A DNA stretch of 16,853 nucleotides, taken from IMG/VR virus record IMGVR_UViG_3300027659_000024; one strand, written 5' to 3'. Under the pieces are notes generated by a model that was given only the letters and a program-made list of their open reading frames with translations, was not told the origin of the DNA and made no database searches. The stretch comes from a virus. Taxonomy: Duplodnaviria; Heunggongvirae; Uroviricota; Caudoviricetes. Every line of letters begins with the position of its first letter. Within the stretch, counting starts at the first letter, position 1. A program made the position numbers and the translations under genes. This document shows, piece by piece, positions 2,935-13,137 of the stretch.

Positions 2935-3228
2935 CTAATTAGCAGTGCCGAAACATCTCAAAAGATGTTTCCAAAAAGATTTTAAGAAACTCTCTTTTTT
3001 AATATCCTCTTTTTGTTCAAAGAACTTACCTTCTTTTCCACATCTCCAGTGATGAAAGCCTTCTCGTTCAACATTACAACGAATAATACTTTCTGTAACA
3101 AAACCCGTTAGTACATTCTGATGTGATTTAATTGTCCTAATACAAAGCCCGTACATGTAATCATCAAAATATTTACAATCTTTACAAAGCTTTACTTTGT
3201 TTTCAATAGGTGCATTTGACTGTGTCAT
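2935..3228 (-). CDS. Cys-rich hypothetical protein, 97 aa
   Basis: LCKDCKY...C...C...CGKEGKFFE; start at MTQSN with AAGGGGAG RBS. Confidence 0.7.
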   Translation of the reverse strand: MTQSNAPIENKVKLCKDCKYFDDYMYGLCIRTIKSHQNVLTGFVTESIIRCNVEREGFHHWRCGKEGKFFEQKEDIKKESFLKSFWKHLLRCFGTAN

Positions 3229-7056: not shown

Positions 7057-7095
7057 TAAATAAAAATACCCCAAAAGGATTTCTCCTAATGGGGT
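7057..7095 (-). terminator. Rho-independent terminator closing the tRNA region
   Basis: ACCCCATTAGGA-GAAA-TCCTTTTGGGGT followed by ATTTTTATTT. Confidence 0.75.
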
Positions 7096-7117
7096 TTATA
7101 TAAATTAAAAATCTTTG

Positions 7118-7203
7118 CTGTACAGGTAGGCTTCGAACCTACAGTTGCTTTCGCGACAGATTAACAGTCTGCTGGGTCTACCAATTCCCCCCCCCACTGT
7201 ACA
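7118..7203 (-). tRNA. tRNA-Asn(GTT) with long variable arm, no encoded CCA
   Basis: Acceptor TGTACAG/CTGTACA, G73, anticodon arm GCAGA-CTGTTAA-TCTGT, T arm GTAGG-TTCGAAG-CCTAC. Confidence 0.85.
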
Positions 7204-7211
7204 ATAATCTT

Positions 7212-7370
7212 GGGTAAGTACACAACCAACCCTTTCACCTGTCAATTCAGGTTGTGCCTGCCGAAGGGGAGGTAGTTTCTACCTGCTAATCTCCTGCTGG
7301 GACTTAGTTTTTGGTTAGCACCAACTAACCTTTAACCTGTACTCAGGTTCGTAACACCGGGAGAGGTGTG
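7212..7370 (-). ncRNA. structured RNA of unknown family, copy A
   Basis: Run of hairpins (ACACC/GGTGT, AACCTG/CAGGTT, GGTTAG/CTAACC, AGGTAG/CTACCT, ACCTG-AATTGA-CAGGT, GGGT/ACCC); 23-nt motif shared with copy B. Confidence 0.6.
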
Positions 7371-7382
7371 TTTTATTTTGGG

Positions 7383-7456
7383 TTGCGGCCTGAAGAATCG
7401 AACTTCATTTGATTTAGTTTATGAGACTAACCCTGATCCAACCAGTACCGACCGCG
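7383..7456 (-). tRNA. tRNA-Met(CAT), initiator-like (C1:A72), partly non-canonical
   Basis: CGCGGTC/GGCCGCA, anticodon arm TTAGT-CTCATAA-ACTAA, T arm TGAAG-TTCGATT-CTTCA. Confidence 0.7.
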
Positions 7457-7611
7457 ATTACAGGGTCGAGCTATACTCCGGTAACCACCAGAATATTTAT
7501 TCAGATTCTTTGCCCTCGACCAGCAAAAGACTGCTTAAACAACTTATCTTCGGTAATGACAAGCATCACTCTGGGTCATTGTAGAACCTAGTTTAAGGTA
7601 AGTTTTACAAC

Positions 7612-8229
7612 CTAGCCAAGTGTACCTTGGCATATTTTTAAAAATACATTTTGCTTTCTTTTTAAACAAAAACAGTTTTTATAGTATAAATTTGAATAAA
7701 TTAAACAAACTGACTTATTACCTGACTGTATCAATCTGAATATTCTAGATGTTTTGTCATTTTTTAATGGTGTTCTATGATTTGTTACTTTCTCAAGATA
7801 AGTTTGAATTTTTTGTAGTATTTTTAAATTTTTACTTGTTAAACTCCAAATTAATTTTGAACTATTTTCTTTAGTAAGAATAACTGAACCATCTGCATCA
7901 AAATAACCCCTTATGAAATCTTTTTTGTAATTGTCCTTTATTTGATCAAACACATCTGACTCTTCTAAGTAAGTTTTATTTTTTAATATACCCGCACGGA
8001 TAAATAATTGTGAACTTTCATAATTCAAATCTAATCTACAACTTTCAAATAAACCCGTCTGGCATTTTGAATAGTAATCTTTAACTTTGTTTTCTTGAAA
8101 AATTTCATAACTTATTTTTACAAGATGCTCTTTATCTTTTTTAGATAACCTTATGGTTATTCTTCTTCCGTCAGAAGAACCGTCACCATATATAAAACCC
8201 AAAATATAATAGAAAATTTCTTTTTTCAT
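7612..8229 (-). CDS. free-standing double-motif LAGLIDADG homing endonuclease
   Basis: YILGFIYGDGS and FIRGYFDADGSV motifs. Confidence 0.85.
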   Translation of the reverse strand: MKKEIFYYILGFIYGDGSSDGRRITIRLSKKDKEHLVKISYEIFQENKVKDYYSKCQTGLFESCRLDLNYESSQLFIRAGILKNKTYLEESDVFDQIKDNYKKDFIRGYFDADGSVILTKENSSKLIWSLTSKNLKILQKIQTYLEKVTNHRTPLKNDKTSRIFRLIQSGNKSVCLIYSNLYYKNCFCLKRKQNVFLKICQGTLG

Positions 8230-8232
8230 AAA

Positions 8233-8315
8233 CCTCTCCTGTTAAATTTAAATATTTTTAACAGGAAAGTATTAGTTTCGCCAAATGAAATTTTGTAGAT
8301 TGCTGAAACTTTCCT
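8233..8315 (-). promoter_or_regulatory. structured leader able to occlude the LAGLIDADG RBS
   Basis: 10-bp IR 8237-8246/8257-8266 buries AGGA of AGGAGAGG; competing 8-bp helix 8263-8270/8308-8315. Confidence 0.55.
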
Positions 8316-8320
8316 AAAAC

Positions 8321-8350
8321 TGGTATCAGAAGGGCAGGGATCGAACCTGC
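8321..8350 (-). tRNA. 3' half of split tRNA-Pro (T arm, acceptor strand, CCA)
   Basis: GCAGG-TTCGATC-CCTGC-CCTTCTGAT-A-CCA. Confidence 0.8.
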
Positions 8351-8360
8351 TTTTCTGATA

Positions 8361-8765
8361 TTACTTATCAAGATCTTTGTGCCAATTTAATTGCGAAGCC
8401 GTTCTTCTTTTATGACAATTAGCACAGAGGACTTGACATTTTTCTATTTCTTTTTTTATTTTATCTAAACTATTGTACACCATCAAGCTTACACAATTAA
8501 TTTTTGTAGTTTGATCCAAATGATCAAATTCTAAAACAACTGGGTCTTTTTCTCCACAAATACAACATGGGTTTTCTTTGAGATAATCCCATAAGTATTG
8601 TCTTTTTTCTATTCTGTTTTGTTTATTTAGATTATTTTTCTTATCTTTCTTTTCTTTTGATAATTTTTTATAATACTGATTATCGTATTCTCTTTTACAA
8701 GGCTTACATTTCTTTTGTGTAATATAGTCTTTTTCAAAAATATTACCACAAGTAAAACACTTCAT
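8361..8765 (-). CDS. HNH endonuclease (Zn-finger type) lying inside tRNA-Pro
   Basis: CCICGE.DPVVLEFDH...EIEKCQVLCANCHKRRT; N-terminal CxxC pairs; GAGG RBS. Confidence 0.9.
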   Translation of the reverse strand: MKCFTCGNIFEKDYITQKKCKPCKREYDNQYYKKLSKEKKDKKNNLNKQNRIEKRQYLWDYLKENPCCICGEKDPVVLEFDHLDQTTKINCVSLMVYNSLDKIKKEIEKCQVLCANCHKRRTASQLNWHKDLDK

Positions 8766-8785
8766 ACATCCTCACAAATTAGTTA

Positions 8786-8830
8786 CCCGGCTCCAAACCG
8801 GGACGATTACCACTCTCGTCACCTTCTGAT
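8786..8830 (-). tRNA. 5' half of split tRNA-Pro(TGG)
   Basis: ATCAGAAGG-TG-ACGA-GAGTGGTAA-TCGT-CCCGG-TTTGGAG-CCGGG; first 9 nt complementary to 8325-8333. Confidence 0.75.
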
Positions 8831-8837
8831 TAAAACT

Positions 8838-8912
8838 TGGCACACGATACGGGAGTCGAACCCGTCTTTAAAGATTGAAAATCTTTTGTCCTAACCGATA
8901 GACGAATCGTGC
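8838..8912 (-). tRNA. tRNA-Glu(TTC)
   Basis: Full cloverleaf, AAAGA-TTTTCAA-TCTTT anticodon arm, encoded CCA. Confidence 0.92.
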
Positions 8913-8922
8913 ATTTAATCTT

Positions 8923-9020
8923 TGGTGGAAATTTCAAGAATCGAACTTGAACACCGTTTCTACCGTTAACAATCAAGTCAGCACAAGGCCCGTCTAGAAT
9001 CAGCTCACCCATATATTCCC
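8923..9020 (-). ncRNA. tRNA-like RNA with intact T arm and CCA but no recognisable D or anticodon arm
   Basis: GGGAATA/AATTTCC-A-CCA with G3:U70; TCAAG-TTCGATT-CTTGA. Confidence 0.6.
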
Positions 9021-9040
9021 ATTTAAAACTTTAAACTCGT

Positions 9041-9265
9041 GGGGAGTACCTTCACACTCTCCCTTGCACTTGTCAATTCAAGTTTTGACGCATTAACGAT
9101 ATTGCTCTCGTCTGATTTCTTTGTCTTAGTACAAAACGGATTCAGAACCACTCTAAGAGTTCTACGGTAACATGTTACCTCTCGGACAGATTAAAACTCT
9201 TAAAAATCTATCCACAGATTTACTGGATTTTGTAAAATACCAAGTCTCACTCAATCTGTAAATCG
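9041..9265 (-). ncRNA. structured RNA of unknown family, copy B
   Basis: Starts just after a promoter; serial hairpins ending ACTTG-AATTGA-CAAGT then GGGAGAGT/ACTCCCC. Confidence 0.6.
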
Positions 9266-9273
9266 ACTTAATT

Positions 9274-9301
9274 ATTATAGCATAATTTTTTAATTTGTCA
9301 A
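9274..9301 (-). promoter_or_regulatory. strong sigma70 promoter for the RNA operon, overlapping the deaminase 3' end
   Basis: TTGACA-N16-TATAAT with TGn extended -10. Confidence 0.8.
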
Positions 9302-9706
9302 GAGTTTTTCTACAATTATTTTTTCTTTTAATTTTTCTACACCTGACAAATCTCTATATTCTTCTAAGTACACCAGTCTTTTTATTCCTGCTTGAGAAAG
9401 CATTGCTGCACAACTTAAACAGGGAGCAAGTGTAACATAGCACGTTGAATCTGTTAAGCTAATTCCTTCTTTTGCTGCTTTTAGTACAGCATTGACTTCA
9501 GCATGAATTACCTCTGCTTTTGTTACGTTGTTTTCTGTTTCGCAAATGTTATCCCAACCAGAAGGTGTACCGTTGTATCCTGTCAATGTTACACCAGATT
9601 TTGTTACAATACAAGCACCAACTTGTTTTCTTTTTGCTTTTGACATTTGCGAGTGCAACAAAGCAGTTGCCATATATGCAGCATCCAATTGTTTTTGAGT
9701 AGGCAT
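9290..9706 (-). CDS. dCMP deaminase (ComEB/CMP-dCMP deaminase family)
   Basis: R.QVGACIV, GYNG, HAE.NA and PCLSC zinc motifs. Confidence 0.93.
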   Translation of the reverse strand: MPTQKQLDAAYMATALLHSQMSKAKRKQVGACIVTKSGVTLTGYNGTPSGWDNICETENNVTKAEVIHAEVNAVLKAAKEGISLTDSTCYVTLAPCLSCAAMLSQAGIKRLVYLEEYRDLSGVEKLKEKIIVEKLLTN

Positions 9707-9707
9707 T

Positions 9708-9863
9708 CTATCGCAACCAAAACCATTTTACAAACAAATTCCAAAACCAAGAACCTAAATCTTCTTCTGGTTGTTCTGATAAAGATATAGAAATGAATTC
9801 TACATTACCATCCGATTCTTCAATTTCTTGCATCATTTTATCAATTTCCGTTTGTTTTGTCAA
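9708..9863 (-). CDS. small acidic protein with Trp-rich C-terminus, 51 aa (not in ORF track)
   Basis: AGGAG RBS then TTG; MTKQTEIDKMMQEIEES...WFWNLFVKWFWLR. Confidence 0.5.
   Translation of the reverse strand: MTKQTEIDKMMQEIEESDGNVEFISISLSEQPEEDLGSWFWNLFVKWFWLR
9835..9863 (-). promoter_or_regulatory. sigma70 promoter upstream of dCMP deaminase
   Basis: TTGACA-N17-TAAAAT with TGn. Confidence 0.6.
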
Positions 9864-9890
9864 GATATTTCTCCTTTTTTTTTTTTATTT

Positions 9891-9966
9891 TGGCGAATGG
9901 ACTCCGATTCGAACGGAGGTTGCAAGGATTTGGAGTCCTGCCGAATAACCACTATCTTATCCACTC
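9891..9966 (-). tRNA. tRNA-Trp(CCA)
   Basis: GAGTGGA/TCCATTC, G73, CT-CCA-AA loop, CTCCG-TTCGAAT-CGGAG, encoded CCA. Confidence 0.88.
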
Positions 9967-9974
9967 TTTTAATA

Positions 9975-10052
9975 TGGTGACACTGGCAGAACTCGAATCT
10001 GCAAACCTACTCCTTAGAAGGGAGTTGCTCTATCCAATTGAGCTACAGTGCC
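9975..10052 (-). tRNA. tRNA-Arg(TCT)
   Basis: Canonical cloverleaf, ACTCC-CTTCTAA-GGAGT, encoded CCA. Confidence 0.93.
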
Positions 10053-10093
10053 TTCGTTTACCAAATAACTCTAAATTAAAATTATTTGGTAAA

Positions 10094-10229
10094 GAGGGTT
10101 TTTACAGAACCCTCATAACTGCAAGTCATTCTTGACACATCCCCCTAGTAGCCTCAAATCTACCTGAGTTTTTGAGCATTACGCTGACACTCTCAAACTC
10201 TTCATGGTTTGTACGCATTTCCAAAGCGT
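10094..10229 (-). ncRNA. structured RNA of unknown family, copy C (more divergent)
   Basis: CAGGTAG...CTACT hairpin, CAAG-AATGA-CTTG, terminal GAGGGTT/AACCCTC; starts right after a promoter. Confidence 0.5.
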
Positions 10230-10235
10230 GACAGA

Positions 10236-10265
10236 ATTATACCTGAAGTTCTGGATCATTGTCAA
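10236..10265 (-). promoter_or_regulatory. sigma70 promoter inside the ClpP-like gene 3' end
   Basis: TTGACA-N18-TATAAT. Confidence 0.6.
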
Positions 10266-12007: not shown

Positions 12008-12148
12008 TTAGTTATCATAATTATTTAAATTAAAGTACTGGTTTCTGGAAAGGTTTATGCTTCCAGAATCAATCAAATCAAGAATATCTTGATCGTACAA
12101 TTGATCTTCTTCATGATCAACTAAGGGTTCAGAAAAATAATTATTCAT
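12008..12148 (-). CDS. small acidic protein, 46 aa (not in ORF track)
   Basis: First ORF after the leftward promoter; AGGA RBS; stop abuts next RBS. Confidence 0.55.
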   Translation of the reverse strand: MNNYFSEPLVDHEEDQLYDQDILDLIDSGSINLSRNQYFNLNNYDN

Positions 12149-12185
12149 TTTGTATTTCCTATCCCTTTTAGTTAATTGAGATTGT

Positions 12186-12627: not shown

Positions 12628-13137
12628 ATGTCTTATCAGAATGAAATACAAAAAGAAGATATACTTAAAATATTTGAATATGATCCTTTATCAGGTGATC
12701 TTACAAGAAAGAGTACAGGAAAGAAAGTTAAATATCCTGAATTTGATAGAGTACCTAAAGTTACTTTTAAAGTAAAAGATAAGACTTATAGACTGCACTC
12801 TCACACTATCGTGTGGTTCATGTGTTATGGAGAGTGGCCTAAATATGTAATCTTTCATAAGGATTTTAATCAATTCAATTTAAGAATTACAAATTTAATG
12901 GAAGTAAATAGATTACACAATTACGCTTTACTTAGCGCATATAAAAATTTAACTGAATATTGTGATATCAAACCTCATAGTCAAGATAAGCATATTTATT
13001 TAGTCAGATATATATCAAATAACAGACTGAAATACGAACAATACCACGATATGAAGTTTGCTCAACTAGCGTGTAAAAGACTTAAAGAAAATTACAGAAG
13101 ACTTATAATTCAACTTGGTGCTATACCTCCATCTTAA
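12628..13137 (+). CDS. HNH_3-type endonuclease-like protein, probably degenerate
   Basis: FEYDP.SG.L, HTIVWFM.YGEWP, HKD....N.RITNL; AAAGGA RBS. Confidence 0.75.
   Translation: MSYQNEIQKEDILKIFEYDPLSGDLTRKSTGKKVKYPEFDRVPKVTFKVKDKTYRLHSHTIVWFMCYGEWPKYVIFHKDFNQFNLRITNLMEVNRLHNYALLSAYKNLTEYCDIKPHSQDKHIYLVRYISNNRLKYEQYHDMKFAQLACKRLKENYRRLIIQLGAIPPS

Follow-up and report, generated by a model that had tools for sequence, protein, structure and literature searches.

What a short hairpin-forming sequence is doing among the transfer RNA genes of a freshwater phage is the question raised by a stretch of 16,853 nucleotides from an uncultivated member of the Caudoviricetes (IMG/VR record IMGVR_UViG_3300027659_000024; the whole stretch is called the window here). 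A sequence-only reading of positions 7212-10229 had proposed three covarying copies of an unrecognised structured RNA, each upstream of a tRNA, as a multicopy family of small RNAs. Our results indicate that the motif is a real, widespread and uncatalogued family of two-hairpin RNAs of aquatic and Aeromonas phages. Its most likely role, to which we give a probability of about 0.4, is that of a cis-acting transcript-boundary ('punctuation') module for the formation or processing of 3' ends. All the genes and RNAs of the region studied lie on the minus strand, to which the coordinates in the window refer.

Two of the three proposed copies belong to the family. The 24-nt repeat that they share, AAC[C/T]TGAATTGACA[G/A]GTG[A/C]AAGGG, is found at 7230-7253 and 9061-9084 and had no match in 200 shuffles. 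In the first copy, A2 (7211-7253; the A of the earlier reading), a first hairpin ACCUG-AAUUGA-CAGGU (H2, 7252-7237) is followed by the linker GAAA (7236-7233), a second hairpin GGGU..ACCC (H3, 7232-7212) and an A at 7211; cmsearch with our covariance model, R1, gives 46.3 bits (E 5e-14), and the predicted fold of -13.9 kcal/mol shows both hairpins. Copy B (9040-9084; 42.5 bits, E 9e-13) has ACUUG-AAUUGA-CAAGU at 9083-9068, the linker GCAA and an H3 at 9063-9041 with a larger loop ending in GGUAC, and its fold also gives both. The compensatory swap from C-G to U-A in the first stem, on which the original proposal leaned, is real, and the folds confirm that a GG-initiated hairpin follows in A2 as in B. 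The distances to the tRNAs were also read correctly: H3 of A2 ends at 7212, 8 nt before the tRNA that starts at 7203, and about 18-20 nt lie between the end of copy B at 9041 and a CCA-ending tRNA-like element. The consensus sigma-70 promoters named for copies B and C exist, at 9301-9274 and 10265-10236, and the start site of the former is about 185 nt upstream of copy B.

A further true copy, A1 (7312-7349), had been overlooked. It consists of ACCUG-AGUA-CAGGU, the linker UAAA and an H3 of GGUUAG(U)-loop-(G)CUAACC, and scores 42.2 bits (E 1e-12) with R1, whose 34 seed rows include A2 and B and leave A1 out. It is preceded by an additional hairpin, H1 (CACC-UCUCCC-GGUG, 7354-7369), recognised by eye and in the fold; A1 and H1 together fold at -21.7 kcal/mol, with a z-score of -3.1. 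H1 is restricted to the lineage of A1 (the window and the related contigs L009 and L010), where its stem shows compensatory changes, and is outside the wider family.

The third proposed copy, C (10087-10138), is not a member: R1, run with filters off, finds no match there at E<=10. In C the order of the stem is reversed (CAAG/CUUG), the linker measures 9 nt against 4, AAC and GNAAGG are absent, and the terminal hairpin is terminator-like. Nor is the AGGTA...TAC hairpin that was said to precede all three copies part of the family, since its distance from the motif varies (about 15, 80 and 10 nt) and it is not conserved in the family alignment. The leader in which C lies spans 184 nt (10053-10236), between a promoter with 12/12 consensus matches and tRNA-Arg, and contains the terminator-like hairpin GAGGGUU..AACCCUC-UUU and a 17-bp AU hairpin. 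The segment holding C is absent in the relatives, where tRNA genes begin 0-24 nt after the gene for a ClpP-like protein (tRNA-Arg in L009 and L010, tRNA-Leu in L007). The idea that C is a decayed form of the tRNA-Leu/Met of L007 was dropped, as no homology was seen.

Members outside the window were retrieved with a degenerate 23-nt pattern, scanned against metagenome contigs of JGI and ENA and, for prokaryotes, one genome of each species. The 85 matches fall in 82 loci. For 46 of the matches, the GG of the pattern is precisely where a hairpin begins, with a stem of 5 bp or more (mostly 7 bp, closed by a 4-nt loop); the remaining matches look like chance. Thirty-two distinct sequences were aligned with A2, B and the L009 copy. 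The consensus is A-[ACCUG-loop-CAGGU]-G-N-AA-[GG..7 bp..CC]-A. The module spans about 42-60 nt and combines a 5-bp hairpin conserved in sequence, the hinge G-N-A-A, and a second hairpin that invariably begins with GG and ends in CC-A, its stem covarying freely.

Pairing in the family is supported at the RNA level. Within the 34-sequence alignment 96.6% of pair cells are standard, compared with 88.6% in column shuffles and 32-48% in slid controls, and five pairs have changed on both sides. For the 46 hits of R1 the figures are 97.0% and six pairs. The middle pair of H2 is left free on both sides by the pattern, yet only C-G (29 sequences) or U-A (5) occurs there, and the R1 hits give 37 CG, 8 UA and no mismatch. 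At the third pair of H3 the most frequent state is G-U (23 of 45), which would be A-C on the other strand; the sense strand is therefore the strand that folds. R1 also recovers copies that the pattern misses, namely one in L039 (620-676) with the first stem ACUCG/CGAGU and two with the 4-nt loop AGYA. Core conservation and some of the pairing are inflated, because the pattern fixes 17 of the 23 core positions and only matches with a hairpin were retained; independent evidence for the family comes from the unconstrained Y/R pair, the copies outside the seed and the comparison of orthologues. No covariation signal for a loop-loop or loop-tail pseudoknot or for tertiary contacts was found in the alignment.

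The orthologues come from three related contigs, L007, L009 and L010, which keep the gene order of the window and encode a ClpP-like protein 50-58% identical to its own. One motif copy each is present in L009 (12262-12318) and L010 (7858-7915), between the last tRNA and an intrinsic terminator that follows closely. By synteny, and by the same CACC-UCUCCC-GGUG hairpin ahead of it, A1 is the window orthologue of this single copy. The H3 stem is compensatory among the three, reading GGUUAG/CUAACC in the window, GGACG/CGUCC in L009 and GGAAAGU/ACUUUCC in L010. Contigs identical to the window at 99.9-100% (L001-L006) are known from several freshwater-type metagenomes and, being so similar, were of no use for covariation; a search of IMG/VR for relatives by the ClpP-like protein gave no match.

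Two other features of these relatives were seen on the way. Right after a consensus promoter, L009 (11775-11885) and L010 (7440-7560) share a conserved leader RNA of about 110-130 nt that contains CAUGAACUCGGAAACA.UGGGA.AAACGAGAGAUCAU.GGUUGACUCAAAC; Rfam gives no match to it at E<=0.5, and the window has no recognisable counterpart. Directly after the dCMP deaminase gene, L007 (11578-11814) and L010 (6896-7132) carry a gene for an Acb2/Tad1-hairpin protein (an anti-CBASS or anti-Thoeris sponge); at that place the window has no such gene, only a promoter and copy B.

A covariance model and a search of phage genomes had been proposed as checks of the sequence-only reading; both were made, and the homologues found show covariation, so that a structured RNA family is borne out by the 34-row alignment and the 46 model hits. 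About 45 instances, at least 32 of them distinct, are spread over freshwater and marine phage contigs, two contigs of metagenome-assembled genomes and four cultured T5-like phages of Aeromonas. The core is nearly identical in the Aeromonas phages, in contigs binned with Bacteroidota and in the freshwater phage studied here. That the RNA belongs to no named family also stands: Rfam 15 gave no match to any copy at gathering thresholds, none to the motif at E<=0.1 in 20 motif-bearing contigs, and none even at E<=10 in the window, L042 and Aeromonas phage TS3. Scans of IMG/VR returned no match to the exact core of A2 and B, and 19 matches to a pattern of H1 plus H2, all of them chance matches in coding DNA. 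By blastn against 50,697 phage records, true matches occur only in Aeromonas Shenzhenvirus phages; neither blastn nor R1 finds a copy in T5, T4 or KVP40, and pVp-1 has only a marginal blastn match (E 0.07). A literature search for the motif sequence found no description of it.

The motif is also represented in CRISPR arrays. Three long arrays with 37-nt repeats of two types (L058, 2534-2556; L061 and L076; L063, 3631-3653) each include a single motif-covering spacer, which extends from 4-6 nt ahead of AAC into the second hairpin; relative to the repeat, all three spacers are oriented alike. Hosts therefore target this conserved phage sequence.

Where the copies lie bears directly on what they may do. 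The original claim of a position upstream of tRNAs describes the window copies, which sit in leader or spacer segments that tRNA processing would release, but it is not a family trait: most members follow protein-coding open reading frames (ORFs), and the copy in L009 and L010 comes after the last tRNA. Inside tRNA arrays the motif occurs in at least six phage lineages; carriers are the window and its relatives, L050 (12 tRNAs), L056 (33 tRNAs), L105 (a contig binned as Sediminibacterium, 14 tRNAs) and the cultured Aeromonas T5-like phages TS3, AhSzw-1, Akh-2 and AhP_Mru1. These copies lack a U-tract; their second stem is richer in G+C, and its loop is longer but keeps the final GUAC. In A2, L056 and TS3, 8 nt separate the second hairpin from the next tRNA, and the inter-tRNA spacer of L056 is simply the motif with 8-nt linkers on either side. 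In the window, A1 and A2 lie in a spacer of 188 nt between the end of a tRNA-like element at 7392 and the tRNA at 7203; cleavage by RNase P at 7203, together with maturation of that element, would free a 188-nt RNA carrying both copies. Similarly, a transcript from the promoter at 9301-9274 would yield a leader of about 245 nt holding copy B. The motif of L044 is followed by a tRNA-like element outside any array, a minihelix at about 12790-12860 (minus strand) with a 10-bp acceptor-like stem, a GGUUCGAAUCC T arm and the end ..CUAACCA, before the next ORF.

In all its settings the motif lies in untranslated gaps, in sense to the transcript. ORF-linked copies have an upstream ORF on the same strand in every case, and the motif starts 6-7 nt past the stop codon in 16 of about 40 cases, with at least 11 unrelated upstream ORFs; in four cases the UGA of the motif is itself the stop codon. 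The upstream ORFs match no Pfam family, and upstream and neighbouring proteins share no family and are mostly ORFans. The distance to the next start codon, which lacks a Shine-Dalgarno sequence, is often about 30 nt. A U-rich tract often follows the second hairpin of these copies, and a loose terminator test (hairpin plus U-run) was passed by 16 of 35 copies as against 33 of 196 control gene ends. L009, L010, L038 and L084 have no direct U-tract and show a separate terminator within about 10-30 nt, in L084 at an apparent convergent gene junction. The copies are found after a divergent switch, at 0.5-2 kb from the start of a long block of small ORFs that share one strand. With one to three copies per genome in IMG/VR records of 60-90 kb, and one in a record estimated to be 92% complete, 'multicopy' was too strong a word.

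The same operons carry matches to pistol and twister-like ribozymes in other intergenic gaps. Among the 20 motif-bearing contigs, pistol is found in four, with a fifth, weak match at 30.7 bits (E 0.096; cut-off 34.5), and twister-P1 in three, at 35-60 bits, below the Rfam cut-off of 67.2 bits. The pistol and twister-P1-like matches are at L042 5768-5828 and 5994-6056, L074 506-571, L080 4850-4914, L039 1065-1123, L040 1274-1326, L099 328-387 and L038 317-378, those to twister and the pistol match in L039 being below gathering cut-offs. In L042 the pistols stand directly before start codons and the motif after stop codons. A second conserved block (..UUUGCACUAACCUUAGGGUGAGCAGUUGU..), with no match in Rfam, follows the motif in four otherwise different contigs (L048 at about 2945-3010, L071 at about 145-200, L098 and L112).

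We favour a transcript-boundary module because the copies are tightly placed in untranslated gaps, frequently have a U-tract or a terminator close by, and keep company with ribozymes. Such a module would be transcribed in sense within the tRNA operon, and its second hairpin would stop or pause RNA polymerase or block 3' exonucleases. The invariant first hairpin and the hinge would offer the surface that a universal host factor, either RNA polymerase or an RNase, recognises; a core kept nearly identical across very different hosts points to a universal partner of this kind or to an RNA that acts by itself. In tRNA arrays, the cut made by RNase P at the next tRNA would free the module with its leader or spacer.

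Several observations weigh against this proposal. The window copies and those of the other tRNA arrays are not terminators where they stand, since they lack a U-tract; none was detected when A1, A2 and B were tested as intrinsic terminators. With one to three copies in a genome of 60-90 kb, the motif is not what punctuates these operons in general. The stability of the second hairpin is low (-6 to -10 kcal/mol), and a simple nuclease block leaves the strong sequence conservation of the first hairpin unexplained, even if part of the core conservation is an artefact of retrieval by pattern. Finally, the tight spacing to stop codons and tRNAs may be mere genome compaction.

A more radical proposal, possible though doubtful, is that the motif belongs to a new class of factor-independent RNA devices, as a minimal self-cleaving ribozyme or as a 42-nt termination modifier that binds RNA polymerase directly. 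If true, it would explain the near-identical core across Aeromonas, probable Bacteroidota and unknown freshwater hosts. A separate rival takes as its model the put RNA of phage HK022 (putL and putR), an RNA of about 70 nt with two stem-loops, bulges and a triple helix, which binds the zinc-binding domain of the beta' subunit of RNA polymerase and suppresses termination; putL keeps a -10-like element thought to cause sigma-dependent pausing (PMC9378689). Under this explanation, which we consider unlikely, the nascent two-hairpin RNA would bind RNA polymerase without any phage protein and allow read-through of terminators or Rho sites. Like put, the motif is a putative cis-acting phage RNA of two stem-loops in few copies (1-2 for put), located after early promoters and before terminators and needing no dedicated protein. 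Long same-strand ORFan operons that follow a divergent switch hold it in their first 0.5-2 kb; in the window a consensus promoter precedes it by about 185 nt, and in L009, L010, L038 and L084 terminators come directly after it. An antiterminator would be useful in untranslated tRNA operons, which are Rho-sensitive, and RNA polymerase as the partner fits the conservation across hosts. The promoter-proximal copies have a -10-like sequence, and the TAnnnT kept in the ORF-linked copies recalls the element of putL (PMC9378689). Two stem-loops and position agree with put, but size and stem architecture do not, as the motif measures about 42 nt and has short perfect stems instead of bulged ones with a triplex; no sequence relation was seen. 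Moreover, a U-tract directly after the motif's own second hairpin, as in ORF-linked copies, is a terminator-like arrangement, the copies of L056 and L105 are in the middle of the tRNA array and not at its head, and the ORFan operon past the terminator of the window has a strong promoter of its own (6969-6941).

No better placed, in our judgement, is the stable trans-acting small RNA of the sequence-only reading, which would be freed by RNase P and 3' trimming or by termination at a U-tract, and serve as a decoy for a host nuclease or defence protein, as a mimic or as a sponge for an RNA-binding protein. tRNA processing would free an RNA of about 70 nt from the L056 spacer, the window spacers measure 188 nt (A1 and A2) and about 245 nt (B), and the conserved loop and hinge nucleotides suit a binding surface. 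As a precedent, the tRNA cluster of phage T4 encodes two stable RNAs that are not tRNAs, species 1 and 2 (rnaC, rnaD). These too are structured RNAs in a phage tRNA operon, presumably freed by tRNA processing; however, the T4 genome has no R1 match, and most members of the present family are outside tRNA clusters. ORF-linked copies lack a 5' processing signal, no partner can be named, and one copy in a 90-kb genome is low for a sponge.

A new small self-cleaving ribozyme, or part of one, appears less probable again. It would cut polycistronic or tRNA-precursor RNA, for example at the N of the G-N-A-A hinge, and so leave one protective hairpin on each product. The motif shares with pistol (RF02679), twister (RF03160/RF02684) and hammerhead the same operons, the same position between a stop codon and the next gene and a similar size, and about ten invariant unpaired nucleotides flank its two covarying stems, a combination also seen in the ribozymes of phage operons. 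Self-cleavage, needing no host-specific factor, would explain the spread across hosts. On the other hand, no ribozyme covariance model of Rfam (pistol, twister, hammerhead, hatchet, HDV-like) matches the motif, even at E<=10, neither a pseudoknot nor tertiary covariation was detected, and two plain hairpins with a 4-nt hinge make a very small scaffold. To our knowledge, most conserved motifs adjoining ribozymes have not been catalytic in the end.

The association with mosaic junctions raises a different possibility, at the DNA level. In five independent comparisons of related contigs (L042/L051, L042/L043-L047, L065/L068, L066/L075 and L069/L098), homology stops at the motif, on one side only, and the 151-aa ORF flanked by two motif copies in L042 is precisely what L093 and L051 are missing. 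Read as DNA, the ORF-linked copies contain TT(A/G)ACA-N17-TAnnnT, with T46 in 34 of 34, A47 in 31 and T51 in 30. The promoter-early stem-loop (PeSL) motifs of T4-like phages are composite promoter-terminator elements (PMC2839356, PMC4122927), and the motif resembles them as a short conserved intergenic stem-loop, oriented with the genes, between small ORFans of plastic early regions; its behaviour at insertion-deletion and mosaic junctions, including the loss in relatives of a gene between two copies, agrees with the description in PMC4122927. It could then be a promoter/terminator cassette, TTAACA-N17-TACTAT within two inverted repeats, at which homologous recombination would shuffle ORFan cassettes, and the exact 17-bp spacing and the next start codon about 30 nt on speak for it. 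We regard this, too, as quite improbable; the motif departs from the PeSL layout of a sigma-70 promoter with a stem-loop just upstream, present in many copies. The stem-loop of PeSLs is upstream of the promoter, whereas the hexamers here are inside two covarying hairpins whose G-U pairs form on the sense strand only. The two variable loop positions coincide with the most important -35 bases, and the predicted start site falls in the U-run. Copies in the window have a hexamer spacing of 19-22 nt, and other tRNA-array copies 19-22 or more, which is incompatible with a promoter, while GUAC and both stems persist. A promoter in the L009 and L010 copies would fire directly into a terminator. PeSLs number tens per genome as against one to three, R1 finds nothing in T4 or KVP40, and the core of the motif is conserved across unrelated phages and hosts.

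Further candidates were rejected. A T7-like RNA polymerase promoter is opposed by the stem covariation and the low copy number, and PF00940 was unmatched in five motif-bearing viral records, a weak test as it was unmatched in control genomes too. An N4-type DNA-hairpin promoter, a Bacteroidota -33/-7 promoter, a hammerhead core, an HDV-like fold, a CsrA site, a CRISPR-repeat mimic, an attC-like site and a REP/IS200 end showed no fit by eye. The motif is not a tRNA or tRNA-like element, as it is called neither by ARAGORN nor by the Rfam tRNA model, has no T-loop and does not stack its hairpins into a continuous 12-bp stem.

The motif is a new RNA family of a known general kind, the structured regulatory or processing motifs between phage genes, and if this holds a widely distributed family joins the small set of structured phage RNAs, with clean covariation support and a sharply defined position after stops, before tRNAs and at cassette junctions. 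Cultured carriers (AhSzw-1, Akh-2, TS3 and AhP_Mru1) are unusual for a motif derived from metagenomes and make its function directly testable. The family bears on why ribozymes and tRNA-like signals punctuate phage early operons, on the role of non-tRNA RNAs within phage tRNA clusters and on how phages shuffle ORFan cassettes among themselves.

The window itself encodes terminase, portal, PhoH, the ClpP-like protease, dCMP deaminase, Dam, several HNH proteins and one LAGLIDADG homing endonuclease. Its consensus sigma-70 promoters are at 10265-10236, 9863-9835, 9301-9274 and 6969-6941; the one that drives the transcript of copy B (9301-9274) is TTGACA-16-TATAAT with a TG and 12/12 matches. An intrinsic terminator-like hairpin with a U run (7060-7098), recognised by eye, ends the tRNA operon just past A1, A2 and the following tRNA; its length and compound form explain why a simple scan did not call it. 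A group I intron or intron core was once considered for the 400 nt that follow the LAGLIDADG gene, but Rfam lends no support to this, and the region consists of a tRNA-like element and the A1/A2 spacer.

ARAGORN calls four tRNAs, namely tRNA-Arg (9975-10052), tRNA-Trp (9891-9966), tRNA-Glu (8838-8912) and an 87-nt tRNA with anticodon GUU (Asn) and a long, type-II-like variable arm (7117-7203), which scores 28.8 bits with the Rfam tRNA model, slightly below the cut-off. The non-canonical tRNA-like element at 7392-7467 (repeat D2 in our comparison of window repeats), recognised by eye and from the relatives, carries the anticodon CAU and has its A-CC(C)A end encoded. It is not called by ARAGORN, yet is kept in the three related phages, namely the window, L009 (at about 12072-12155) and L010 (at 7652-7718), the L010 copy reaching 31 bits with the Rfam tRNA model. 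The CCA-ending element 3' of copy B (8920-9023), also found by eye, is paralogous in its T arm and 3' end to 7366-7405 and aligns with a CCA-ending tRNA-Tyr-like element of L009; this better alignment displaced the idea that the first hairpin of copy B is the anticodon arm of the tRNA-Tyr-like element. Around one HNH gene there are parts of tRNA-like structures, an acceptor/T-arm minihelix ending in CCA 10 nt after the gene (8320-8360) and an acceptor strand, D arm and UGG anticodon arm just 5' of it (8780-8837). Similar GUU (Asn) tRNAs of 87-89 nt, with the long type-II-like variable arm, are present in L009 (11980-12066) and L050 (3719-3807).

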